A stretch of DNA of 60,270 nucleotides, the filler included, from Dugesia japonica (lineage: Eukaryota), in the NCBI GenBank assembly GCA_001938525.1. It is 6 parts of 6 records of this genome, joined end to end, with 100 filler letters (N's around TTAATTAATTAA, not from the genome) between each part and the next. Parts side by side here need not be neighbours in the genome. Positions count along the whole stretch, not along the records: positions 1 to 11,598 come from MQRL01186332.1; 5 more parts are not named here. The stretch is one strand, 5' to 3'. The notes beneath the pieces are model-generated. The model was given only the letters and a program-made list of their open reading frames with translations. It searched no databases and was not told the origin of the DNA. A program made the position numbers and the translations under genes. Numbering within the stretch: the first letter of the stretch is position 1; each line of letters begins with the position of its first letter. Shown here piece after piece: positions 1 through 41,714 of this stretch.

Positions 1-672
1 CATAATTCATATATTCAATTTGGATTTTCTTTTTATTTCGTGATCCATAATTTATTATATTGTTTTCTTTTATTATCGAATTTATTATTTGAGCTTTCGT
101 GCTTTCATTGTTTGTTTATTATTTTCTTTTATCATTGATTATTATTTCTTCGAGCAGTTTGTATTTAATTATATTTCTTTAATATTTCTGTTATAAAGTA
201 TTCATTAATTTACTGAATTATTGTTCTTTTTCTTTCTGTCTTCCTTTATTATTTAACACTATTCGTTTATTTCTGAAATTTCATTATCTTCTTGAGCACT
301 TTAGTTTATTAAGTTTCTCTTTGATTATAATTTCCATTTAATAATCACTTGATTCGTTGTTTAATATTTTCACAATAGTTAAATCTTAGTCACGCGATGT
401 TTCGAGCTTTCACTTTATTCTAATGATTTAGGTTAATTCATTTCTTCTATTCTAATTATTATTTCTACTTGGTTCTCTGTTTCTTATTAATTTAATTCAA
501 TTTCTCATTTATCATTTTTATGAAGCTGTTACTTTATTTTATTCTCTATTGTCGCTTTTAATATTCCTATTTTTTTTATTACTTCGATTATGCTTGGGAC
601 ATATTGTCTCTTCTATTCGATTGTTCATTTTTTTAAATGTTCATTTTATCGCCGGCCTGTTTCAGCACAACA
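1..672 (-). mobile_element. 5' part of a TGTTG-terminated LTR-like repeat (related to the solo LTR at 33775-35396)
   Basis: Reverse complement starts TGTTGTGCTGAAACAGG, resembling TGTTGGGCTGAAACACTGG at 33775, followed by the same kind of A-rich degenerate sequence. Confidence 0.5.
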
Positions 673-759
673 AATTACTGGGGGCCCACAAAAAATTCCG
701 CCCTGGAATTCTTTCGATTCCTTCTTATACATTTTCACTCTCTTTCTCATTGCTTACAT

Positions 760-2841
760 TGTAACCGATTGTACTCTGAATTTCTACTCGTTTTCGCGGT
801 TGGTGGTGGTTGAAAAAGATCCTATTAGACAAGAATTCTCATTAGTCAAAACAGAAAGAAAACTAAAGAAATAAGCCATTGTTAAAAATACTTTTATTAT
901 AAATTTACGTTAGCAAAATATAAGCACTTAAATGCTTAGTTATGGATCACAAAATAATTGTTAACTGGATCACAAGTCCACACAATTAAAGTTAATATAT
1001 AATGTTACTACTTCTCTGGATCATTGAAATTCGTAGTTCGTAGAGGAAGTTTGTAGCAGATGGTCTGGAATAGTTGTCGGGATTTCTAAGACAGCGTGAT
1101 GCTCGTTGGGACTTGAAAAAGTTCATTCACGTTGTCACAATTTAGGGTCATTGGTAGTCTAGATTTGGTACTTGTAAATTGGAATGTTTATGTTGTCATT
1201 GGAAAACAATTGGGATGCTTGTAGTTGCTAAAATTTTGAAGATGTCAATACGGGACAGCGGGGAGATTCGCTCGTGATTGAAAATTGTAACTTTCATAAT
1301 ATAGAAACAAGATAACCGGGATTGTACTGCATAATTAAAATTGAAAACTTTGTAATGTCGAACTGGGACAGCTGGGATGTTTGTCTCTGAAAAAAATTGA
1401 TTCGTATTGTCGAAATTAAGAGTCATTGGTAACTGAGATTTGACACTTGGGCATTAAAATATCTGCCGAACAGCCGGGATTAACCGTCGAGATAAGACAG
1501 CTGGGATACCATATCAACACATTAGAATATCGGGGTTATTGACATTTATAGAAAACTAGCAGGGTTTCATATCCGAAGAAGTTAAGATGTCTAGGAAGTG
1601 ATTTTTTTTATAAAAGACAGCCGGGATGCCGCCTTAGTAAACAATTTTAGGAATACACGTGGTTAAGGTTTGAGATTGTTGGGATCTGCTCTGGTTGTAC
1701 TGGGAATTGATGCAGCATAGAACTTCCGAGAAATAACACATAATGCAGTATAGGACTGCCAATAGAAAATATCAATCATAATTAAAATTTATACAAGGTT
1801 CTGATGCTGGACTTAACGATGCTAGAAAAGAACCTTTTCCGATTTCGAGTAGGGCCACTTGCTTGTAGGTTCCGAGATTGGAATGTCTGGAATTCGTAGA
1901 TTGTTTCGTCTCTGGTACGCTTGTTGTGCTAGATAATTTATTTCCAGCGCGATAGGTCTATCTGATTGAAATTGGTTGCTGTTGACTAAGTCGTAAGGAT
2001 GGCTTCTCGGCGGTAAGAGTACTGGAACAGGTGTGTTTTTCAACCTTTCATATTGGCTTCTCCATTTTCGATACTCATTTATTAACTCCTTATTTTCAAT
2101 AATAAGATTTTCATTTTCCTCTTTCGTCTCTCAATTCTCTTTATTTAATTGTTCGTATTTATTTAATTCTGTATCATTGCACGACTTTCTTCATACGCTT
2201 CTTTCCATCTTTTACTCTCAATTTCATAACTTTTTTATCTTGAATTTCTCTTTGTATTCTTTCCAAATGTATTTGTTGAGCCTGGGTTTTGGCCAAATTG
2301 TTATTCTCAATTGTTGATTCTAACATTTTTACTTTTGATTCCACTTTATTTCTGTTCTTTGCTCATCCAATAATGCGTTCAATCTTTTTCGCTCTTGTCT
2401 CATTAACAGTTTCACTTCTTTTAAATCACTTTGTGTCTTTAAACATTGCTGCTTCCAATACTGAACTCCTCCTTTTAATTTGTTAACTATAGCTTTGTGA
2501 CCTTCTTCTATTTGACACTGGGTTGCCTGGGTTTCGGCGACTTGATTCTTTAATCTCATTATTTGATTCTCGTAGTATAATCTAGATTCTATTCTGCAAT
2601 ACAAAATTGTCAATTTTATCATAATAAGGGTTTTAATGATATAATCGATTAATTAGATAACATTTGTGAGCTGGGCTAGCATCATATCTAGCTTTTTATT
2701 CAAACTGATTTAACTGATATTTACCAATTTAAGTTGTTTCAATAATTTACATGTATTAATTTGAATATCTGCGATTATCTCCCGATTTTCCTTCACTTCA
2801 CACTTCTCGTTTAATCAAATCCTTTTACACCACTCGCAACA
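760..2841 (-). repeat. Putative 3' LTR (~2.1 kb) of the Gypsy element
   Basis: On the minus strand a purine-rich GAAATTGAGGAGTA tract is followed by TGTTGCGAG at 2841. The segment ends ...TCGGTTACA at 760, with AATAAA at ~893-898. No 5' LTR is present to confirm it. Confidence 0.6.
1085..1630. repeat. Dispersed GACAGCYGGGAT motif array and ~280-bp-spaced degenerate duplication inside the LTR
   Basis: Motif copies near 1090, 1253, 1313, 1366, 1470, 1496 and 1616; 1090-1175 resembles 1367-1450. Confidence 0.7.
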
Positions 2842-3028
2842 TACTCCTCAATTTCAATTCACTTTACTTTTCTCCTTTATTTGACTTTTATTTTCTCACA
2901 CAACACTTGTGATCCATATACATCGTTTACACTACACTACACTCTACTATTACATTTCAAGTTTAAGCTATATACACAATTTTCTCATTCTTCACTACCA
3001 TAAATCTTCACCGGACCTTTTCTCAGCG

Positions 3029-4310
3029 TCACCGGTTCTCACCATTGCTTTGGGTGAATGTAAATATTTGTATGTTAACTCTACCAAATTCATTACGAAT
3101 TTTTGGTCGTGCATATTGTCTTTTTCTCGCTTTGACACACAAAATAACTGTAATTACTAACAACATTACTCCGGTTATTCCTCCGACTCCTCCAATGAGT
3201 CTCATGGACCATCCATCATTAGTTGCTGCTATCCTCGTTATCGTGGCTTTTTTCGTTATCTCCTCTAATTGTTTTAGTTCATCTGGTTTGATTCTGATCT
3301 CGTTGGCTCTTGCCATCTTTTACATTAATCTTTCGATATTACCGTTTCCTCTTGTCTGGGCTTCTGATCCTCGGTTTAGTTTTATTTCTTTTTCGTACTG
3401 CCTCATTTAGATTATTTCTCTTTTATTCGTCGTGCTGATTTCGGTGATATTGTTTGCACTACTTCTTTTCGTCGTTTCTGGTTTTGTTATCTCCTGACCT
3501 CGTGTCGTTTTTAGTTTATGGGTTTATTTGGTTATCTTCTCCGATGTACGTGTTGTTATCTCTGTTGTGATTCTTGGTTTTATGACTTGTCTCGTCATTT
3601 CATCTGGTGGTAGCTCCCACATTATCCTATATTCCACTTCGAACCATATACTATATCTCAGATGTATTTCATGTTTTAATTCTTGTTTTAATTCCCTTTA
3701 TATTCTACTAACAAATCACCGTCTGTTCAATCTTTAAGTGATAAATAATGTCCGGTTCGCCTATTTTCTTTTCCTTTTCGTAACACTGACAAATCCACAA
3801 ATTTTCCTGCCCAATTTATCTTAATTCCGAGCGCACTTCTCCTGCTGTAAGGCATGTTACCTCGTTTTGCTTCTAATATTTGTCCTCGTTTTGTCCAAAG
3901 CACTTCATGCACTCTTTCTGGTGTAAATCTCCATAAGTGTGATATACGATACTTGTTTCTTAGCACAGGATCTCTCGTTTCTTCCCCATGTTGGTTTGTT
4001 CCAATCTCGTATTAAATATAGAATGTTAAAATAGTTTCTGTAATAAATACTAAAGATTCTTCTAACTTCGAACATTCCCGAATCTTTGTAGTAACTTGAT
4101 ATCCACGATTCCTCTCGGTAAGGATTTTTATATACTCCTTTGTATTGTATTAATCGCATTTTTTGTGGTTTTTCTCCTGTTATATCAAGATTCACTTGCC
4201 AAGATTTTCTAAATATCTTTACAGTCATTGCGTGACCTTTTACCTGTATGTCAGGTTGTACCCATGTAAACGGGGCTCTATATTCCGTTTCTGTATAATG
4301 ACCTTCTTTT
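3029..4310 (-). pseudogene. Type I membrane protein downstream of integrase (aromatic-rich ectodomain, Thr-rich stalk, TM helix, basic tail)
   Basis: ORF pieces 3905-4228, 3727-3966 and 3029-3316, plus the frame between them (RITTEITTRTSEKITK..KPETTKRSSANNITEISTT). TM segment LIGGVGGITGVMLLVITVILCV is followed by KARKR. Confidence 0.7.
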
Positions 4311-4319
4311 GTGTGTTAT

Positions 4320-5250
4320 GTTCTCTTTTATTCGCTCTTTCATACCTGTCACATAATCGTCTTCATTCATGTACTGCAAAATTGGTGGTTGATATTCCAA
4401 ATCAATAGGCATATTACACTCTCTGCCATACATTAAACTGAACGGTTTTGCTCTTGTTGTTGGATGTATCCCATTCTATATGCAAATAGGCATAAATTCA
4501 AATTTTTATCAGATTCTCGTTGATCCTTTGAAGCATAGCTCAATAGCATTCTTGTCAACGTTTGGTTGAACATTTCTGTCATTCCGTCCGTCTGAGGACA
4601 ATATGCTGATGTTCGTAATTTGTAAATATTGACGAAACTCGTAATTTGTTTCATCAACTCACTCATAAAGTTCTTTCCCTGATCGGTTAAAATTTTCTTT
4701 GGAAGCCCATAACGACTAAACACTTTGTCGCTGCTTTCTGATCTCTTAACGCAAATGCTTCCAGAAATTTTGATAGATAATCTACGACCGTTAAAATATA
4801 TATCTTTCCACTGTCTGTTGGTGGTAATGGCCTAATTATATCCATTGCTATTATATCCATCGGTGTTGCTGGCACTGGAATAGGTTGTAGTGGAACTTTG
4901 AATTTCTTTCCTGTTCCTCTTCTTGCTGCAAATATCTGACATTTTCCCACCCAGGTTTTTATACGTGTCGTTATATGTGGCCAATAATATTTTGCTCTCA
5001 ATGTGGATTCTGTCTTTTTAGCTGACATATGACCTCCTAATATTCCATTATGATAATGTTTCAAAATCTTTGCTCGTCTGCTTTTTGGTATTACTAACAA
5101 CATTTTGTCACTCTCCTTCATCATCAACCATCCATTGACTATTGCGTATTGTCCTCCTCGTTTCTTCAAATGTTCTTTCATGCTTTTATTACACTTAACT
5201 TTACTCAGATCGTAATGTTTTAGATAATCTAGAATTATTTTAATCTCTAA
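4320..5250 (-). pseudogene. Gypsy integrase (HHCC + DDE core), frameshifted
   Basis: HNGILGGH..YYWP..CQ; DIIAMDII.PLP; YILTVVDYLSKF; YGLPKKILTDQGKNF; PQTDGMTEMFNQTL; PFSLMYGRE. Confidence 0.95.
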
Positions 5251-5774
5251 ATCCTCATCTTGATTCTTTTTGAGACCTGTAAATCTTTATTTTCTGCTAA
5301 TATCATACATAAGGTTCGTATTTCTTGATTCATTAACTGCTGAATATTAATCACTTCGTTGTCTTGAATTTTAGTTTCCGCCTTCTCTTCCGGTTCATCT
5401 GTAAATCTCGCTCTTGACATATAATATGCATTTGCATTTGCTTTACTCGATTTGTATTTTACTAATGGTGCATATTCTTGTAGTTTCATAGCCCATCTCG
5501 CCATTCAATTTATCTGTAGTGGTTTATGTCCGACCATTGTAAGCAGTTGATGATCTGTAAATACTACTAGTTCGTGTCCAAGTATCAACTGATTGAAGTG
5601 CTTTACTGCTTTTACAATTGCTAAAATTTCTCGTTCTGTTGTATTGTAGTTATTTTCTGCACCTTGAAAGGTTTTACTAAAATAGCCGCTGAATCGTTCT
5701 CGACCCTCTTCATCTAGTTGACTCAAGACTGCTCGTATTGCATAGCAACTTGAATATGTTGCCAATATAAATGG
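5247..5774 (-). pseudogene. Gypsy RNase H
   Basis: AIRAVLSQ..YFSKTF..AENNYNTTEREILAIV..VVFTDHQLL..MARWAMKLQEY. Confidence 0.95.
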
Positions 5775-6265
5775 TTACTTAAAATCTGGTTGTACTAATA
5801 TCGGTGCTGTCATTAACTTTTCTCGTATTATTTCGAAGGCTTTTTGATGCTCATCTGTCCAAATAAATTTTACATCTTGTCTCACTAATGATTGAATTGG
5901 TTTGACTATAGTTGCAAATCTTTTGATAAATTTTCTGTAATAGTTCGCCATGCCTAAAAATACTTGCACATCATTTACTGTTTTCGGTACTGGTAATTTC
6001 TTACTCTTTTCAATATTCGCTGGATCTGGTTGTTTTCCTTGATCTGATATTAGATGACCTAAATATGTTACTTGACTCTTCGCCCATTCACACTTTGTAG
6101 GTTTTACTCTAAGATTCCACATTCTCAGTCGTACAAATACATTTCTCAAATTTTCTAAATGCTCCTCAAATGTTGAAAATATTAATAAATCATCGATATA
6201 TATCATACTCTGTGGGATTCCATAAGTCACAAAATTCATTGTCCGTTGGAACGATGCAGGTGCAT
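5775..6265 (-). pseudogene. Reverse transcriptase (N-terminal part deleted)
   Basis: APASFQRTMN..IYIDDLLIFS..KCEW..YLGH..FLGMANYYRKFI; the motifs normally upstream of APASFQR are absent. Confidence 0.95.
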
Positions 6266-6296
6266 ATTTTCCTAATTTTGCTAATTTTTCACTTTT

Positions 6297-6680
6297 TCAA
6301 CAGTAATCTGATTGATGGTTATCTTTACCACAATGTATACATCTTGGATGTCTGAATTGAGTTTGACGTTTTCTAACACCATTATATTGATCCAAATCTA
6401 TTTTTTCACTTGGGAATACTTTTGGCATTATGTCTAATCCAATAATACATTCAACCATTAAAGTATTCATTATTTTCATTATATGTGTAAATCGTTCTCG
6501 CGATGTATGTATTAAACAAGATATTTCGCCCACAGCTTTTATTGATTCTCCAGTTATCATCAATAGTTCCCTAAATGCTTTTTCGATTCTTGATTTATCT
6601 GCTTTAGCTATTACTTTCGAATTTATTATTGAACTACTTGCTCCAGTATCAATCATACAATCCAATGTTTTAACAATTAT
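6297..6680 (-). pseudogene. Retropepsin aspartic protease followed by a CCHC zinc knuckle
   Basis: CMIDTGASSSII...CIIGLDIM, then CIHCGKDNHQSDYC (CX2CX4HX4C). Confidence 0.9.
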
Positions 6681-7064
6681 TTGTTATTCTTTGCATCAAC
6701 ACTTTAAATCCTGGAGTTAACACTGGTGTTAAACTGCTTGCTTCATCTTTTCTGATATCTTCTTCACTTTTTGATATAATACTAAAATTTTTTGATCTCA
6801 ATTGTATTGTTCGATTATCATGTTCATCTTTTTCTCTAAGAGTTGGTGGAAGTTTACATTCTTTACTCAAATATTTATCTCTAAATGGTTGTAATTCCTT
6901 ATTTGAATAATACACTGTATTCACTCTTCGCTGTCTCTGCCTTGGGTAACATCTCGATCTCCATGATGATTACGTCTTTTGAGTTCTGCCAAGTCTCTCG
7001 AGCTGTTGTTTCTGTTGATCGTCTACTTCCTGTGATAACTCATCGTATACTCCGAATTCGTCGT

Positions 7065-9160
7065 TTTAATTTCTTTTATCATAATAAGCTCCTTGCCACT
7101 GTGATGCAGAAGGTAAACCCTTGGACTGATTCAATAACCATTGATCATATGCTGGTGCAGATGCACCTTCTAACTTTTCTGGTAACTCTTCATACACTTC
7201 CTCATCGATTACTGCATTATATCCTTTTTGATAGCCATCGGACTATTGCCGTCCTTGTTGTAAATTTCTAATTTGTTCTCTAATTTGTTGATTATGAGTT
7301 GTTGTCGATTCTCGAATCTTTGGTCGATTATTATCTGGTCCATCACTGCCATCATTACTACTATCTTGTCTTTTCCACGGTTTGAATGCATCAAATATTG
7401 TCGTTTTTCTTTCTTTTCGTTTTCTCATTTCCTTACATATTGATCGAATTTGATTAATGATCTGTTCATCTGTTACTCCGATTTGACTCATACATCTCAA
7501 TAATCTCTTCGTACTGTGTAAATCATTTGAATGACTATTTAATACCACCGACTTTGCCCATGCTAGAAATATTCCCATCATCATTTACCAAGATATCTTT
7601 CTCTCTTTCTTATATAAGTCGAAACATGCCAATAATTGTGTCATTATCACTTTGACTATCTGTATTATGAATATTATTCTAAGTAAACCAGCCATTGCTT
7701 GTCCAAAAACTATGAATCGATCCCACATTTCTTCATCACATTTACCGTTGCTGTCTGAAAATGATCTGCGGATAACTATAATTCATAATTTGATCTACCA
7801 TCTGCTGTAAATCCTCCTCCTGCTATTTGCACAAGATTCGATAAAATTTGCATCCACTTTACTGGAAATAACATATGTTCTCTTGCTTTGTCCAAATCAT
7901 CTTGTTGATAAATTCCACCTTCCGCTATATTTAACGGTGTAAATTGTGCTTCACCTTTTAATTGTAATCGTGAATATTTTCTGACTCGTGTTACCGGAAG
8001 TCTCTCTGGAAATCGTACCCATTGATTATTCTGTAATTTAAAGTAAGTTCCAAATAGGTTTGAATAGTTTATCAGGTTTGGAATAAATCCTCTTGGTGAT
8101 ATCACTGTAGTAATTGGCTGCACAAATTGCCTTTCTTTGTTATAAAATATCTCTACTTCATTATAGCATCTATTATGTTCCTTTGGTGCCAACGTTGCAT
8201 CCACTTTTTTACATTGATATATGAACATTACCTCTCCCACAATTCGTCTAAATTATCCTTCTGCTAGCGGTAATAATGGTGACACATTATCTGGATTTGT
8301 AGTTGCTGTTGCCAATTTCGTCTTTAATATTTCGTTATTTAATGTACAATCGTTCCACACTAGATCGTGATATATTTTCTCTATTTAAGCTTGTGTTAAA
8401 TGAAACAAATTATCTATTATATTATTGATATAGAGATGTAACTTCGTATCTTCTGTTGTGATTCCTGCTTTAGTCTTTTCTACACTCGTTTTTGATACCC
8501 ATAAACCTTTATAATTTGTTTCGTTTACTAATTCTTCACATTTCGATTTTGTTTTCTTTCGTGACAAACTGATCATTCCGTTTTTGTCAGTTGACATTAA
8601 AACTACGGTCGTTTCTGCCCAGTGCATTTCGCCTGGTTTTAGTTTCATACCATCATCTACCTTTCCCACTGGTGGCATCGTTTCTTTTTCATCCACTTCA
8701 ATAACCTTTTTACCTTGAGATTCGTCGAAAGCCGTTTCTTTTAGAAATTTCATTGCACATTCTTGATGATTAACATTATACATTAATGTTGACGTTCGCG
8801 TGTCACATAAAAGATCTGACGCTTTACACATAGTATACATTTTCATCATCTGTGTCTTTGTATCGAAGAATGCATCATATTCCTTTAATTCGACTCGATA
8901 ACTTTCTATCGCTACCTTATAACTGGTGACTACTCTTTTTACAGTATAAGTACCTTACGTACACGTTCCATGTTCATCCGATATACTTCCTGCTGCGAAT
9001 ATTCTTGTTTGCATGATCTGTTCACTTTTAGCATTAACAATCTTTCTTTCTGCTACTTGTATCTTTCCAGTCACAAATCCTTCTTCACATTGTTGTCCTG
9101 TTAAATAGATCTGTCTCACTTCTTGTCCGGTTTCGATAAAATATATATTGTCATTTAGCT
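7065..9160 (-). pseudogene. env: Chuvirus-G / herpes gB-like (class III) envelope fusion glycoprotein, N-terminus missing
   Basis: Motif series typical of chuvirus-type glycoproteins: AAGSISDEHGTC, CKASDLLCD, LYINN, DCTLN..LATATTNPD, GEVMFIYQCKKV, CYNEV, FVQPITTVI, GGIYQQDDL..HMLFP, then hydrophobic WDRFIVFGQAMAGLLRIIFIIQIVKVI. Recognised by eye, not by search. Confidence 0.8.
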
Positions 9161-9630
9161 GTCAATGTCAATTATACTAATTTTGTCTTTATTGTCAATT
9201 TTCTCCGTATTTTTAGATGATCTCTGATTTCCTGTTAAATATGCACCCTATTATCGAAGAAAGGGAGTAATAAATTTATTTTACAATTCTACAAAATCTT
9301 ACTTTAAAAATTAAATCAACCTTATAAACAAAAATTAAAATATTCAGACAAACATAAATATTACAATTATTGCAAAAAAAGATAAATAATAAGTATAAAA
9401 TAAAAACTTAAAATTTTTTTCCTCTATTCCAAATTCCTTACATTCAATTCTTTAAGAACTTTCGAAGCTTTTTAATGTTTATTGAATCTATCATGACCTT
9501 TATCTTATATCTCAACTTTTACCAGCTTTTTTTACGTAACGTTAAACTATTTTTTCGTCAGTGTCTTATCTCTGTTTTGTAAATTTCTATTGTTTTACTA
9601 CTAACAAGTAAAAACGTTCTCTATTCAATT

Positions 9631-10042
9631 AGTAGGTGAATAGGAGCGCACAATACCAACCTCCGTGTATAAGAATTTTACATTTATTTGGCGGAAATGA
9701 TTTAATTATTACTCGTATTTCTTTGTGTGTATCCAGTTCTTTTTTTAAAGTCAACTGTTCCCAATTTCTTTTGATGAGTCACCGGCGTGAAATCAACCTA
9801 TTTTTGTTTAAAAAACTAACATTTTTAATTTTTAAGTGAATTTCCTCTAGGATAATATTAAAATTAGAAGCACATTGAGCAATATTAATATTAACATTGA
9901 AAGCTCTCCGGGCAATACATATATTAACATGAAATGCTCCCACGGACAATAAATACATGTACCTTTAAATACACGTAAAATTTCCATATCACTAATAATT
10001 ATCTCTCGAGAGGTATGGTACCGTGCGCTCTAACTACCTACT
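9631..10042. mobile_element. Miniature non-autonomous Polinton/Maverick-type element (412 bp)
   Basis: Termini AGTAGGT...ACCTACT, ~35-bp imperfect TIRs sharing GAGCGCAC, and a perfect 6-bp TSD TCAATT (9625-9630, 10043-10048). Confidence 0.75.
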
Positions 10043-10556
10043 TCAATTTTCTGCCCGAATTCTTTGCTTGAAATTTCTGTGTAGAATTCTAAATCATAAG
10101 TTTAAATGTGAGTTCTACCACTGGCAAAATATCTCTTAAATCTAAAGTTCATGTACCCGGCGACATGGTATTAATCTTATAGTATATTGTACACAATTTT
10201 CTCACAATTACTCATTCTTTTTATGAAATTTTGAAATCTACTAAATAACGATAACATCAGGAATAGTGACCTTCTTCTAATTGGTTGACACTACTTATAT
10301 CACAAATCATGTAAAGTGGTCAACCATTCAAAAGATATACTTCTTTCTATCTTTAATTTTATTAGAGGTATAAGAAAATAATTATTATTTAATATTTTTA
10401 GCCAAGAGAAAGTGAGTTAATTCGGTAATAAGTTTTAATCAGTTCTTTTCAATTATATTATTTCCAAATAGCATAGTTTTAGTAGTAAAATAAACGATGT
10501 CTCAAAATATTAGTTTTGATTTGGAAAATGAATTACCAATTAAAGATTTACCTAAC

Positions 10557-11598
10557 ATGGTGGTAGCGGTAAATACCAATTTTAATACAGAAATGTTATT
10601 GCTGAAAATGTTCTGCAGAGGATATGGTATTGAGAAATTTATCAGGCGGTGTGAATTGTATTTCAAAGCTAAAAACATCAATCATGTGAAACAACAGGAG
10701 AGATTACTCTCCTGTTTGTTAGATAAAGATTTGTTGGAAGAATATGTAAAGACATTGAAAAATGTTGAAGGTTTTTAGACTCGTTTACGTATGGCATTTG
10801 AGAAAGAGAAAGATGTTATCAAAGATTTTTAAAATTTGATTAAGTACAGGAGTGAAATGAAAAAGGTTTTCAGACTCGTTTGCATATGGCATTTAAGAAA
10901 GAGATTTTCAAAGATTTTCGAAATTTGATTAACTATAGGCGTCAAAATGAAGAGATTCAAGTTTATTTTAAAGATGTAAAAGATTTAGTAAAAAGATTAT
11001 TTACAAATAAAGATTTTACTGAGTAAAAAATGGTAGCAAAGATGCTTATATACTGTTCAGAAGAAGTGACTTTGCGGAAACGAGAGAATATAGAAGAAGT
11101 TGAAGAAACAATGACATTAGTAAATTGAGAAGAGAAAACAGAGATCAAGTTTTGGAAGTTAGACGTTACTTGAGAGTTACAAGTCGAAATTATCAGAAAC
11201 CTGCAAATCATACAGTAAATAGATATATGGAGCACAAAAAGGAAAAACAAAATATCGAATATTGGCTATGTCATAAGATCGGTCATAATAAAGCAAATTG
11301 TCCGACCAAAAAAAAGGTAGAGTATTGGACTTGTCATAAAACAGGACATATAAGTCTAGATTGTCCAAGTAAAAAACCAACAAAATGTTTTAGTTGTGGA
11401 AAGGTTGGTCATATTCGAAGGTTATGTCAAGAAGTAAAGTGTAAACGATGTATTAATGGTGGACATAGAGTAGAAGAGTGCTACACAAATTTAAAAATAA
11501 AAAGAACAAGAAATTTATGACTATAGAAAGATCAAGAAACCGATATAATTGAGTACATGCGATTGAAGATGAAGATGTCAATACAAACGATGGATATG
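10557..11598 (+). pseudogene. gag: Gypsy gag remnant with four tandem CCHC knuckles (first two C->Y)
   Basis: MVVAVNT..FCRGYGIEKFIRRCELYF; YWLCHKIGHNKANC, YWTCHKTGHISLDC, CFSCGKVGHIRRLC, CKRCINGGHRVEEC. Confidence 0.85.
10558..10570 (+). promoter_or_regulatory. Primer-binding site, tRNA-Leu-like
   Basis: TGGTGGTAGCGGT directly after ...AACA; the homologous copy at 18289-18301 has TGGTGGCAGCGGT, complementary to the tRNA-Leu 3' end ACCGCTGCCACCA. Confidence 0.65.
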
Positions 11599-25900: not shown

Positions 25901-26099
25901 TATTCTTTTTATTTTCTAACCACTACTGAATTCACAGTAAATTATAAAATTCTACTACTTAACAAGCCTGACAAAAATTACCGCCTAAAAAGTCTATAAA
26001 AATTTCCCCAACTAAATGCACATTAAAAATAAAAAATACTGGATCACTTATGTAGTAATCTTGCGACGAGATTAATTACGTTATGAAACGCACACAAAT

Positions 26100-26720
26100 G
26101 TGTGCCGTCGCCTATTTGCATTAGAAAAATCTTATATCACCTATGTAATAATCCGATTACGTCAACAGAGGGTTCCTACACAGGTGATACAGTGCAACAC
26201 TATCTACCAACTTTTATGGCAAATAGATTTGATGACAATGATATCTAATTCGAGAATTAATAAAGGATACAAGTATATTTTGAAATGTGTTGATGTATTT
26301 AGCAGATTTTTAAGAGTTGTACTGATAAAATCGAAATCTGCAAATGAGATGGAAGCTGCAGTCACAACAATCTTTAAAGAGGGACATCCAGATAATTTTC
26401 AAACTGATTTGGGAAAAGAATTTTATAATTCAAATCATCTCAAGATTAATCATTATTCTGTATTTTCACAATACAAACCTGCATATGTTGACAGATTTAA
26501 TCAAACATTGAAAAATTATTTTATATATACTGGTAATAAAACCTGGATACATGTATTACCGAAAGTAATCGATATTTGTAATCAAGCAAGTCATAGAAGA
26601 TTAAATGGAGCAAGACCTGTTGATATTACATCTGATAAATCAATGAAACTATGGCTTTTGAGACAACAACCAAAAGTAATCAAGAAACCAAAATATAAAG
26701 TTAACCATAGAAGAAAAAGA
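26100..26720 (+). pseudogene. Polinton/Maverick rve integrase
   Basis: WQIDLMTM..NKGYKYILKCVDVFSRF..KSKS..FQTDLGKEFYN..HYS..VDRFNQTLK..W..LP. Confidence 0.9.
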
Positions 26721-26723
26721 AAA

Positions 26724-27733
26724 ATGAGCAAAATAAATAATTTCTACACATTATTACTGAGTAATAGTTGTCCACGTATTCATTTGATAATGAATTCATT
26801 GTTGTACTTGAAGATCCTATTTATTTGAATGAACAAGAGAAAGTGGACTTGATGGACTTTACCTTTATTTATCATGTTTTCAATTATTTAACACATCATA
26901 CATCAAATATGTAACATGTGAAGATTATGAAAAGAATGTAGAAATCATAATCAATAACAAAAAAATCATTAAGGATTTATGATGTTGGCATTAACGTGAT
27001 TGATGAAAGATCATTGTCAATAATATTTAAACATCATGATTATGTTGTAATATTTGACAATTTAGAAGATGCCAAACGATTTTGATTTAATACTTTAAGA
27101 AATAATATAGATTTGATTTCTAACATACAATATCAAGATTTTAAAAATGATGATTCGATTGATGTTGTGAAAATGAAAATAGTGTTTTCAATAGAAACTA
27201 ATAAATTCATATCTTTAAAAAACGAATATTACATATCGAATTTGAATCAATTTGGTAGTTTCATCACAAAAGTGTGCAAGTATATTTTCAAAACACTTAC
27301 TATAAAAAATGATGAACCATTCCAATTTTCGTTGTTGGAAAATGTTAAAAGTGTTACTTTCGATAATTTTTTGGCAAAATCATTAGGTTTAGACAGACAA
27401 ACATTTACTCGGGATTATAGAACTATAGTCCATATTGAAGTCATTGGTGTTAAATATCCAAAATTAATTACTTATCTTCATCAAATGTCCATCTATAGTA
27501 ATAAAGTGGAACCTATAATTGTTGGTGATGTTAATGTTCCTTTGTTGAAATCTGTATGGTTGGAGAATTATGAAGATGATAAAGTAGCTCAGATAATAAT
27601 CAAGAATCACATGTATTTATCAGTTGCCACTTTATGTATAAACAATATAGAAATCAATATCCGAAGTGATAGTGGAGAATTAACTTTGCGAAAGAGTCAA
27701 AAACTCATTTAACTCTACATTTTCGAAAAGTAA
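26724..27733 (+). pseudogene. Polinton minor capsid (penton/PX)-like protein
   Basis: N-terminal FYTLLLSNSC; C-terminal IYSNKVEPIIVGDVNVPLLK..Y..V..INNIEINIR..G and, after a frameshift, TLHFRK. Confidence 0.7.
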
Positions 27734-37760: not shown

Positions 37761-40700
37761 ATGGGGAGAAGTAAGAATAAAAATAAACTGCAATTAAAAT
37801 ATGAAAATCATAATAATGATGATAATATTATGTCGAATAATAAACTTAAGGATGAAGAAAATCATTTAGACGAAAACGAAAGCGATGATTCAGAAGTATG
37901 TTATGTTTTTATTTTACTTTATATAATGCTTGATTTATAGAGTGTATTAAATAATCCAATATTGTTAAATCATATTAACGATATACAAAATGTCAATGAA
38001 AACATTTTGGTATGGAGTGATGAGGATGTCATTGACGATAATAAGAGTAAAGTCTTTCATGAAATGGTCAAAACCGAAATAATTAAAAAATCAATTAAAA
38101 AAAGCGCATTTTCCAAATATTTAAAATCTAGCCTTAAGGAAATCAGTAAAATTAATATATTTGCTCTTAGTGGAATTATTATGAAAAGCGACGACTCGTC
38201 AGATAAGAATAATATTATTTTAAATGAAATATCCAGCAATAACTATTCAACAATTGAAACCAAGTATATTTCATTTAAATGGTAATTAGTGATTATTATT
38301 TTCTCTAAATTTTCAGAAATTCTAAAAGTACAGAAAATTTGAATATTTTAGATTTTCCAGAAGAAATTGAAAGTAAATTTTATTATAATTATTTTGGTAA
38401 ATAAATGTTAATTTAAATTTGAATTAATTAATTAATTAAATAGTAAAACTATTTGTGATAATAATTTTTTAATAATTTTGTTAATAGATGTTGATGCAAA
38501 TTGTCAGCAATTAAAGTTATCAGAAGTAGCTTCTAGTCTCATTGAACGTCCAGTTCGTCGTTCTGGTCGATCTGCAAAAATTAATTACAAAGAAATGTTG
38601 AATGTGCAAATTTTTGAAGTTGTCAGATCATCAGAACAACAACAACAACATAACGATGGAATTTCTCCTAAGAAGAAGAACAATAGAATTAAACGGGAAC
38701 TGTCTAAACGGTTGTCGATAAATAATGAATTGGAAGATGATAATAATTTAGTTGGTGAAGAAAACGAAGATAAGAAAATTAGGAAAAGTGAAGTTGAAAG
38801 AAAAGAAGTGGATAATGTTTCACGATTGGATTGGTGTAATGAAGAGGAGCAAGTGAAACCATTGAGTGAAATAGCAGGGGATTATCGAGGAGAGCAGAAT
38901 GAGTGCGGTGAGTCGTCATCATCACCAACAACAACAACAGCAACAGTGAAACAACAGTTATCGAAAGGAAGCGTGACGGTAACGGCACACATAAAGAAGC
39001 GGTTCAGCAAGGATTTATCGAGACAGTGCGTGTTGTGCCAGAAACCAGTGATGGGCAGCAACAGGTTCCTCAATTTGTGCTACAAATGCATGGTGGCATC
39101 ATCAAAGATCATTTTGAAAATGGGACTGAACGATAATTGGAGCGAGGTTGCTAATTTGTTGGTGTGTCTCGATATACCACCGTGTTACGATAAGAACAAT
39201 GGAGATGATGATGGGGATCTGTGTGACGCGTGCCAAGTTCAGAATCTAATCAGCAAGCGTGTCGAATGGGGGCCAGATTTCAATTTTATGAGTTGTGTGT
39301 CGCTGGAACAGTTGCGCTCGACAGACTCTGTTAGGAAATCTCGATTAGCGAGTGAGAAACAAATAGAATGTTGGTTGAACGCATTCCAGGGCGCGGAGGA
39401 CTGGAACAAGTCGTGCATATTGGGGGAGAATCAACCTCTGTCGACATTATGCAAATGGGATATTCGATATTTCCAGCATTCCTCGACATTTCCACGTGGA
39501 ACTAGTTGTGATTTGTGTCGATCTGTACCAGCAGAGACGAGCAACCGTCTCTATTCGGTCTTACCTGCAGTCACTGTCGACAGGGAGGAGAACAAACATG
39601 CAATAGTTTGTCACAACTGTCTGCTGCTTGCACACCGCGCATACAACTCACGTATTGATCGTCCCCAATGTTCCTCTCCGTGCGCAGATCTCACAAACTG
39701 TTCGTTGTGCCTTCTCAACCGTCTGGGTGCTCTCTGCCCACTCAGTTCCATCAAATATCGATATTTCCTGAGAACAAGCAGCTCCTCAGCGAGTATGTGC
39801 GAGATCTGCATCCGCAACGATTCGAATCTGATAGCGGTGATCCGCGGGGGCAACCGCGTGTGCCACATTTGCATTTGTCGGATCAAATTGTTCCATTTCA
39901 AGCAGTCACCATCGCTGCCTCCGTCTGTTCCTCCTGTTCCTCCTGCTGCTCCTCCTGCTCGTTGTGAACTCGGGGAATCGTGTTCCATCAGTAAATGTGA
40001 CGCATGCTTAGTGGATTTGGCGGGCAGAGTTGTCGATGTGCACCAGATCATCTCGCATTTCCACAAATGTGACTACAACATTACCAGTAGCACCAGCGGT
40101 ACCAGCGGTACCAGCAGCAACAATCTGATCGCGAGGAAATCTACGAAACGATCAATAGAAGAGAGTAATCGAGACGATCCGAGTGGAGAAACTAAATCAA
40201 AGCGGCAATACACAGCTCCATCGGCAGCAGCAGCAGCAGCATCATCATCATCATTGTCAGTGAATGTGAATGTGAATGTGATCCCCAGTTCCCCCCCTGC
40301 CCCTCCATCTCTCAATGATCACCACCAGCAACAGCACCAGCAGCAGCACAGACCACGCAGGATCATCAAGAACACACAATTCAATGACTTCATTGTCGAC
40401 AAGTGCTTGCTGCGCAAAACGATGAATGATCGAGTAGTGCTCACTTCCAGTTCCTCGACAATGAATACTCAGAGAAAATTGGTGGCAACTGAGGGTGAGG
40501 GTGAGGGTGAGCATGAGCATGAGCATGAGGCATCACTGGGTGTCGTTATTGATCAGCAGGAGAACCAGGAGAAACTTGGTGATGGTGGCAATGACAATGA
40601 GGAGGAGGAACATGAGGAACAGGAAGAGAGCAAGTGTGGGAGTGGCGCAATTGATAGTTATTCAGAGAATACTGCTGATGGTAACCAACAAGAACAACAA

Positions 40701-41714
40701 GAACAAGAACAAGAACCACAAGTTATTTCTGCAGCAAATCTGTATCAACAAATGATCACCAGGAAGAACGAAGATAGACCAATAGGAAGCGCAGTAGGGG
40801 AACCAAGCGAGGAAATGCCTAATAATAATGAGGAAGTGTCATTGTTGAAACCGTGTCGACGCATCAAGCAAGCGATGCCAACAGTAGTTCAAGTGACCAA
40901 CAGAAATGACCAACAACAACAGATTGTGAGTGGAGCAGGAACAGAAGGAACACCAATTACAGAGAGCATCACTAGCAGCACAGGAATAAGCACAGCAATG
41001 CTGTCACGGAACACAAATGGACCACGAGTGAAGCAAGTCAGCAGACAACATGTGAACCATGGTGAGTGTTGTAGTTGTAGTTGTGCTCTGCCAGCAGCCA
41101 GCAGTACAGAGGAACCTGTCCACCAACAAGAACACCAGTGCTACTGCTACTGCTCTCTCATCTACTGATCTTCTNNNNNNNNNNNNNNNNNNNNNNNNNN
41201 NNNNNNNNNATATATATATATATATCTTCTTTACCATTTCCTATCTTCTTTATCATTTCAGCTGACCTCAATCTCGACATGCAATCTCGACAGAAGTGCG
41301 TGATCAAGCGAGGCAACCGAATTATCAAGAAGCCTGAGAGCATGTCTAGCTACATCATGGACTATGAGGACCACAGAGCAGGACGGAGAATCTACGAGAA
41401 TGATGCTGAACATGATTATGAGAAAGATACGCGATCTGAAGACAAGGAGTCCTCTGAGGAGGAGTTGAAGTTCCACGCTGACAAATTAGCCTCATTTGGT
41501 AACCAAACATCAACAACAACAGCAGCAACAGGAGGATTGGACAACAACAGTAGCGATATGAGATGTGGCGTGTGCACCGGGTGTTCACGCAATCGGTGCT
41601 GCGGTAAATGTGATCCGTGTTTGTGAGTTTGATTGGTTGACATTTGTTATCAATATTTATCTTTCTTCATAACAGATTGAACAAATCCCAGAGGAGGAAA
41701 ACAGAGACTTGTGT
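37761..41714 (+). CDS. Cys-rich nuclear protein: three nuclear-receptor-like Zn modules plus CXXC zinc finger (possible KMT2/Trithorax-like N-terminus); 3' end missing
   Basis: Phase-compatible exons 37761-37895, 37941-38263, 38317-38372, 38488-41061, 41262-41622 and 41676-41714. CXXC motif: RCGVCTGCSRNRCCGKCDPCLLNKSQRRKTETC. Confidence 0.85.

Follow-up and report, generated by a model that had tools for sequence, protein, structure and literature searches.

Does a planarian retroelement that already encodes an envelope protein (Env) carry a second, unrelated surface protein gene behind its integrase? The question is raised by a 60,270-nucleotide (nt) stretch of DNA from Dugesia japonica (assembly GCA_001938525.1), made of six parts joined end to end and hereafter called the window. 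The DNA is AT-rich and of animal type, from a scaffold with gaps, and a decayed Ty3/gypsy element with env ahead of pol lies on its minus strand. A preliminary description of the window had placed a type I membrane protein behind the integrase and suggested a separate attachment protein and fusogen. The open reading frame (ORF) at this place, ORF2, is the decayed gene of a second single-pass type I membrane protein of the env-pol element family, unrelated to env.

ORF2 lies on the minus strand behind the integrase core and is read in three pieces (4315-3944, 3939-3691 and 3688-3032). Its parts, including the transmembrane (TM) helix, and the junction that precedes them are as follows, with Ig and FN3 standing for immunoglobulin and fibronectin type III:

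4312-4322, no strand: deletion junction joining the integrase to ORF2, marked by loose contig ends; the lost piece is probably longer than 200 nt.
3944-4312, minus strand: first piece of the ectodomain, stop-free in translation; predicted all-beta, with an Ig/FN3-like fold as a lead.
3572-3939, minus strand: second part of the ectodomain, split by frameshifts near 3940 and 3690 and by one stop; by eye, a second beta-sandwich.
3211-3571, minus strand: stalk, a Thr-rich part with an NIT sequon followed by a charged part; three stops; variable between copies.
3119-3199, minus strand: Gly-rich TM helix (3199-3134; Kyte-Doolittle (KD) hydropathy 2.49 over 19 residues) and KARKR stop-transfer signal (3133-3119).
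3029-3118, minus strand: cytoplasmic tail of uncertain true end, with departures in other copies at the stop and at 3084.

The coding signal and the TM segment of ORF2 exceed chance. Stops number 0 in the 124 codons of the first piece, 1 in the 83 of the second and 3 in the 219 of the third, and the other two frames of 3032-3688 hold 24 and 16. A stop-free run of 136 codons arose in 6 of 2000 simulations, at most three stops in 219 codons in 1 of 500, and a TM segment with a basic cluster in 1 of 2000 simulations under a dinucleotide model. The gene is nevertheless broken by four stops and two frameshifts (near 3940 and near 3690), which the preliminary description did not mention. ORF2 and env have decayed to the same extent (426 codons of ORF2 hold four stops, and 461 of env also hold four), so that ORF2 was probably intact when this copy inserted. 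A hydrophobic ORF on the plus strand (2967-3410) was rejected as the antisense shadow of a Lys/Thr-rich frame.

Translation bore out most of the layout first proposed. The ectodomain (4312-3572) comprises about 250 residues with one Cys and no sequon, and 18% of the residues in its first 124-residue, stop-free piece are aromatic. The stalk has 120 residues, among them 20 Thr, 25 Lys/Arg, 14 Glu and 2 Pro, and contains the single sequon, NIT, at 3451-3443. It had been called Thr-rich and mucin-like, and this holds for its first 48 residues (15 Thr and 4 Ser) but not for the remainder, which is charged and Pro-poor. One TM helix, Gly-rich as described, is followed near the C-terminus by basic stop-transfer residues, the arrangement of a type I protein. 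The true C-terminus is uncertain because other copies differ at the stop (3029-3031). When the three pieces were compared with the rest of the window by tblastn, no match to env was found (best E 0.15, outside env), in agreement with the stated lack of similarity to the upstream glycoprotein.

Other copies of ORF2 were sought by aligning contigs of public runs at 80% likeness; six of the 24 listed runs were used in all, with X1, X3, X9 and X12 compared over 600-10500 and X1, X5, X16 and X20 over 2880-4560. Over the latter interval, X1 gave 802 contigs, 294 of them under 90% alike, and 32 of 1540 pieces were displayed. Contigs about 80-91% identical to ORF2 cover the tail, TM and stalk, the stalk and ectodomain, and the ectodomain. 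Among the pieces displayed, these are represented by 2941-3338 (78 differences), by 3471-3849 (35 differences), and by 3942-4312 and 3882-4239 (74 and 60 differences), respectively. In X3 and in X5, one contig matches both 3055/3058-3169 and 3566-3687, and the stalk between these stretches has diverged without changing in length. Contigs that match the TM region and then leave at 3219, on the stalk side, number 11, 4, 2 and 4 in X1, X5, X16 and X20. These matches and exits indicate that the ectodomain-stalk-TM layout is common to diverged copies and that the anchor is more conserved than the stalk. The ORF is accordingly found beyond this copy in the same order, often with a diverged stalk. 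Ten X1 contigs lack the frameshift near 3940, and a single contig in X1 and another in X5 depart from this copy near 3690. Contigs from X1, X16 and X20 that are diverged elsewhere match 45 nt of the ectodomain (4143-4188), possibly a conserved motif of a distant subfamily.

The same contigs bear on whether ORF2 derives from a host receptor gene, a piece of which was captured once and then carried along without serving the element. LTR (long terminal repeat) elements do capture ORFs downstream of pol, according to the available part of one report (PMC6431247), and in that of another the third ORFs (ORF3s) of rotifer elements showed no departure from neutrality (PMC5408684). Likewise, the 22 listed differing places inside ORF2 fall 7, 12 and 3 times on codon positions 1, 2 and 3, without a third-position excess, and mostly reflect this copy's own decay; the tally draws on the 2880-4560 comparison for 21 places and on the 600-10500 comparison for one, and excludes five middle-frame rows, the stop row and any row beyond the ORF. 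However, copies about 20% diverged have the same layout, and the TM region was kept at 80% or more while the adjoining stalk was replaced. We therefore regard functionless cargo as unlikely. RNA gave little further guidance: in the raw RNA runs X9 and X12, about one quarter of each run being scanned, almost no reads fell on ORF2 and almost none on env-pol, a scarcity not specific to ORF2. X16 and X20, two runs only guessed to be RNA, yielded contigs over parts of ORF2, and no splice joint was seen.

The N-terminus of ORF2 had been thought lost in a deletion near 4310, and the contig ends agree. Integrase-like contigs cease matching at 4322-4330 (6, 5, 2 and 6 contigs in X1, X5, X16 and X20), with a loose end beyond the integrase of median 218 nt in X5, and ORF2-like contigs cease matching at 4308-4312. 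One 290-nt contig with zero differences spans 4070-4359; because this exact contig bridges it, the junction exists in DNA, and it looks private to this copy. The deletion is real and takes away the integrase end and the start of the ORF2 protein. Consequently, any signal peptide, any in-frame fusion to the integrase and other copies in which integrase and ORF2 are linked are out of view.

Such a junction might instead join two elements, with ORF2 deriving from another repeat and not from the env-pol element. It is bridged solely by this copy's exact contig, and summed contig depth in X1 is far lower for the ectodomain (230-2466) and stalk (155-560) than for the integrase end (11,900-36,800), which is a hint only, as contig depth cannot rank parts. 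Against this, the depth of the TM region (~24,000) is like that of the integrase, and ORF2 and env-pol lie on the same strand with equal decay. A chimeric origin of the locus thus appears improbable.

The fold of the ectodomain was approached by prediction and by searches. AlphaFold2 gave seven strands for the first ectodomain piece alone, with a pLDDT of 44.7, and Foldseek and VIA fold searches with this weak model returned nothing meaningful. Both halves of the ectodomain have strand patterns that, by eye, we take to be like those of Ig and FN3 domains. The strand-like alternation was reached by 191 of 5000 shuffles. An internal repeat was not significant, its score being reached by 271 of 2000 and 234 of 2000 shuffles. 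In an Atlas search with the first piece, the ten top-ranked named hits that carry a family assignment all fall in a single family or clan (0.75-0.77). These are bacterial Ig-like and fn3 clusters, with fn3 on 25-36% of members, and constitute a lead only, a third of shuffled proteins agreeing likewise. An Ig/FN3-like fold is accordingly offered as a lead from modelling and nothing firmer. No ectodomain match was found in Pfam, PHROGs, NCBIfam and PDB sequence searches; for the fn3 and Ig families of Pfam, broken pieces were compared with the HMMER filters on. Homologue searches with a single-frame read-through of ORF2 were also blank (0 of 867 candidates; 0 among 1.84 billion). In the same collections, env obtained 0 of 153 candidates and the integrase 4 of 486, at 32-35% identity, and among viral contigs env obtained 0 of 11. 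The blank ORF2 search says little, because the family is missing from those collections, where env and integrase are also without close matches.

The canonical env position of ORF2 would suit a relic of a second fusogen, that is, an older env, and its Gly-rich TM is similar to the anchor of alphavirus E1 (E 0.023). The E1 match covers the TM only, however, and the ectodomain has one Cys in ~250 residues, no match to a fusogen family and no hydrophobic stretch resembling a fusion peptide (maximum KD 0.47 and 0.90). We consider such a relic very improbable, and the specific identification with a class II, alphavirus E1-like fusogen was rejected on the Cys content and the confinement of the match to the TM. 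The anchor matches to PRIMA1 and E1 were set aside as generic TM resemblance, and a match to L001 (29% over 43 residues of the charged stalk) as chance.

Judging from its sequence, the element behind which ORF2 lies is a decayed, 5'-truncated env-pol copy of Ty3/gypsy on the minus strand, of the planarian Burro / GAG-ENV-POL type with a gB-like env. From about 9200 down to 4322 it comprises env, protease (PR), reverse transcriptase (RT), RNase H (RH) and integrase (IN), all with stops and frameshifts:

7620-9160, minus strand: env of gB / mononegavirus type (class III); N-terminus cut off at ~9200, single TM near 7700-7620, four stops.
6690-7620, minus strand: spacer from the env TM to the protease, continuing the frame of the env tail with a few stops.
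6297-6683, minus strand: aspartic protease (RVP, E 2.6e-5).
5505-6296, minus strand: RT, its N-terminal part missing (RVT_1, E 2.4e-12), and RNase H (RT_RNaseH, E 3.8e-24).
4322-5286, minus strand: integrase (H2C2 and core; Integrase_H2C2, E 7.7e-16, and rve), its C-terminal part lost.

A Pfam profile search thus gave the Ty3/gypsy order PR-RT-RH-IN, with env upstream of pol. Env was recognized by PF24664 (E 3.9e-18 on 7776-8252) and by a C-terminal TM in a TM scan. The reading frame of the env tail continues toward the protease, interrupted by stops and, near 6680, by one frameshift at which other copies differ. The spacer has no gag signature, and no Pfam match below E 0.02 was obtained on 7243-7584. 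Between PR and RT, in a part shortened in this copy, no Pfam match to a dUTPase was found. A zinc knuckle (CCHC; CX2CX4HX4C) occurs at 6341-6300 on the minus strand, immediately behind the protease, at the place of Burro's dUTPase; the start of RT is missing just after it. The element's own gag and 5' LTR are not present in the window, as the copy ends inside env at ~9200, and no self-match indicative of LTRs was found within 1-10500.

Downstream of ORF2, six purine-tract/TG candidates were noted, none singled out as polypurine tract (PPT) or start of the 3' LTR. The sites at 2937-2993, matched by many contigs, and at 731-750, both on the minus strand, could be a PPT with the start of the 3' LTR. 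The same side carries one further feature:

1822-2739, minus strand: decayed coiled-coil / Pro-rich accessory ORF (11 stops in 313 codons, versus 34 and 16).

This ORF is linked to the ORF2 tail in another copy, as an X1 contig holds pieces of the 2632-2855 and 2907-3185 regions. On the minus strand from 2739 to 1000, the coiled-coil ORF with its Pro-rich motif gives way to a run of short motifs that recur, with a hydrophobic segment near 1770; no Pfam match was found, and the region may hold accessory or LTR-borne genes. Elsewhere in the window, a gag fragment of another retroelement with CCHC knuckles lies on the opposite strand (10494-11520, plus). Integrase-like and capsid-like ORFs at 26076-27712 (plus) resemble, by eye, the remains of a Polinton. 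A 910-codon open frame with Cys-rich repeats at 38436-41168 (plus) is probably an exon of a host gene.

What might such a second protein do? We tentatively propose, judging it close to an even call, that ORF2 is the decayed second-membrane-protein gene of a planarian-type env-pol family and served as an adhesion or attachment partner beside the class III fusogen. A lost signal peptide would place the beta-sandwich head, probably Ig/FN3-like, outside the cell, raised on the stalk. The head, displayed on particles or where cells touch, would bind a surface molecule of the target cell, after which membrane fusion would fall to the gB-type Env. Together, binding and fusion would help the element to move out of differentiated cells and into stem cells. 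A protein that contacts the host would be expected to keep its anchor conserved while its outer part varies. For gB-carrying elements, entry is stated to be unexplained, since herpes simplex virus (HSV) needs gD, gH and gL (PMC13524379, in the part available), and differentiated cells of the intestine and epidermis show derepression of BURRO1, according to the available part of PMC8532177.

Alternatively, ORF2 could be an accessory membrane protein acting on the host cell, be it as a receptor decoy, as a modulator of immunity or signalling, or by blocking superinfection; we find such a role doubtful though worth serious consideration. In its favour, viral immune proteins and cytokine-receptor-like proteins share the layout of an Ig/FN3 head on a stalk with a TM, and this type of env usually works alone. 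The cargo of Burro is, moreover, dominated by host-regulatory domains (BIR, BCL2, MATH) in the available description (PMC6431247). On the other side, the tail in this copy is short and without a recognised signalling motif (its end being uncertain), and the stalk keeps its length while its sequence changes, which fits a spacer for contact.

The attachment reading could be carried further, to a herpesvirus-like two-part entry machine in planarian GAG-ENV-POL retroviruses. Such a machine would pair a polyprotein-encoded, mononegavirus-type class III fusogen with a captured, Ig/FN3-type receptor-binding protein behind the integrase. The two would come from unrelated sources, and the variable head would set the cell type (e.g. 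stem cells) entered by each subfamily. In this full form the proposal is speculative, and we think it rather less than probable. A family-wide second surface protein would be a concrete candidate for the missing binding step of gB-carrying retrotransposons, in a model animal that allows these elements to be derepressed and tracked by tissue (PMC8532177). Were this true, a retroelement would have put together its multi-protein surface from unrelated components in the manner of large viruses; should ORF2 be a host-directed decoy, Burro's cargo of host-manipulating genes would extend to the cell surface.

Herpesviruses combine gB with gD, gH and gL, and alphaherpesviruses add gE/gI; a class III fusogen is thus accompanied by separate surface proteins, Ig-like and stalked, that serve binding or spread between cells. 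The comparison is an analogy only, no sequence or structure match having been found. Closer relatives are known among flatworms. Env before pol is published, in the parts of the reports available, for planarian Burro/GYPSM1 (PMC6431247) and for Platyhelminthes GAG-ENV-POL errantiviruses (PMC13524379), and with it the upstream glycoprotein, so that the first reading was overstated in this respect. Burro and GYPSM1 are giant planarian LTR retrotransposons over 30 kb long with a dUTPase between PR and RT. They resemble the present element in an env in frame before the protease, matches to mononegavirus fusion proteins, accessory ORFs and decayed copies, but the part of that account at hand mentions no membrane protein downstream of the integrase (PMC6431247). 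In Smed_errantivirus_5 and _6 (Chary and Hayashi, PMC13524379, in part), a gB-type env likewise precedes a Ty3/gypsy pol, and their Env shares many motifs with that of the window by eye, without an alignment (supplement of the same paper). No second membrane protein behind the integrase is described for the Platyhelminthes HSV/gB-type GAG-ENV-POL errantiviruses in the available part of that work. Nor did our literature search, whose scope did not extend to Grohme 2018 or its supplement, find any report of a second membrane protein for either Burro or the GAG-ENV-POL group.

The proposal that two glycoproteins in one LTR element would be very unusual needs narrowing. As far as the available part of PMC9094657 goes, Atlas virus and Cer13 (Belpaoviridae) already pair a variable attachment glycoprotein with a separate fusogen in an LTR retroelement. 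Their Gn-Gc is encoded after the integrase as one polyprotein, a single captured phlebovirus cassette with a class II fusogen. Here, in contrast, the two proteins are unrelated and lie on opposite sides of pol, and the fusogen is of class III; unrelated proteins flanking pol do remain unusual. The TM proteins encoded by ORF3 of bdelloid LTR retrotransposons are similar in being small, TM-bearing extra ORFs behind pol, but they replace an env rather than accompany one, contain Cys and measure 210-230 aa (PMC5408684, in the part available). The novelty of the Dugesia japonica element would lie in a class III fusogen and a second surface protein unrelated to it, encoded to either side of pol.
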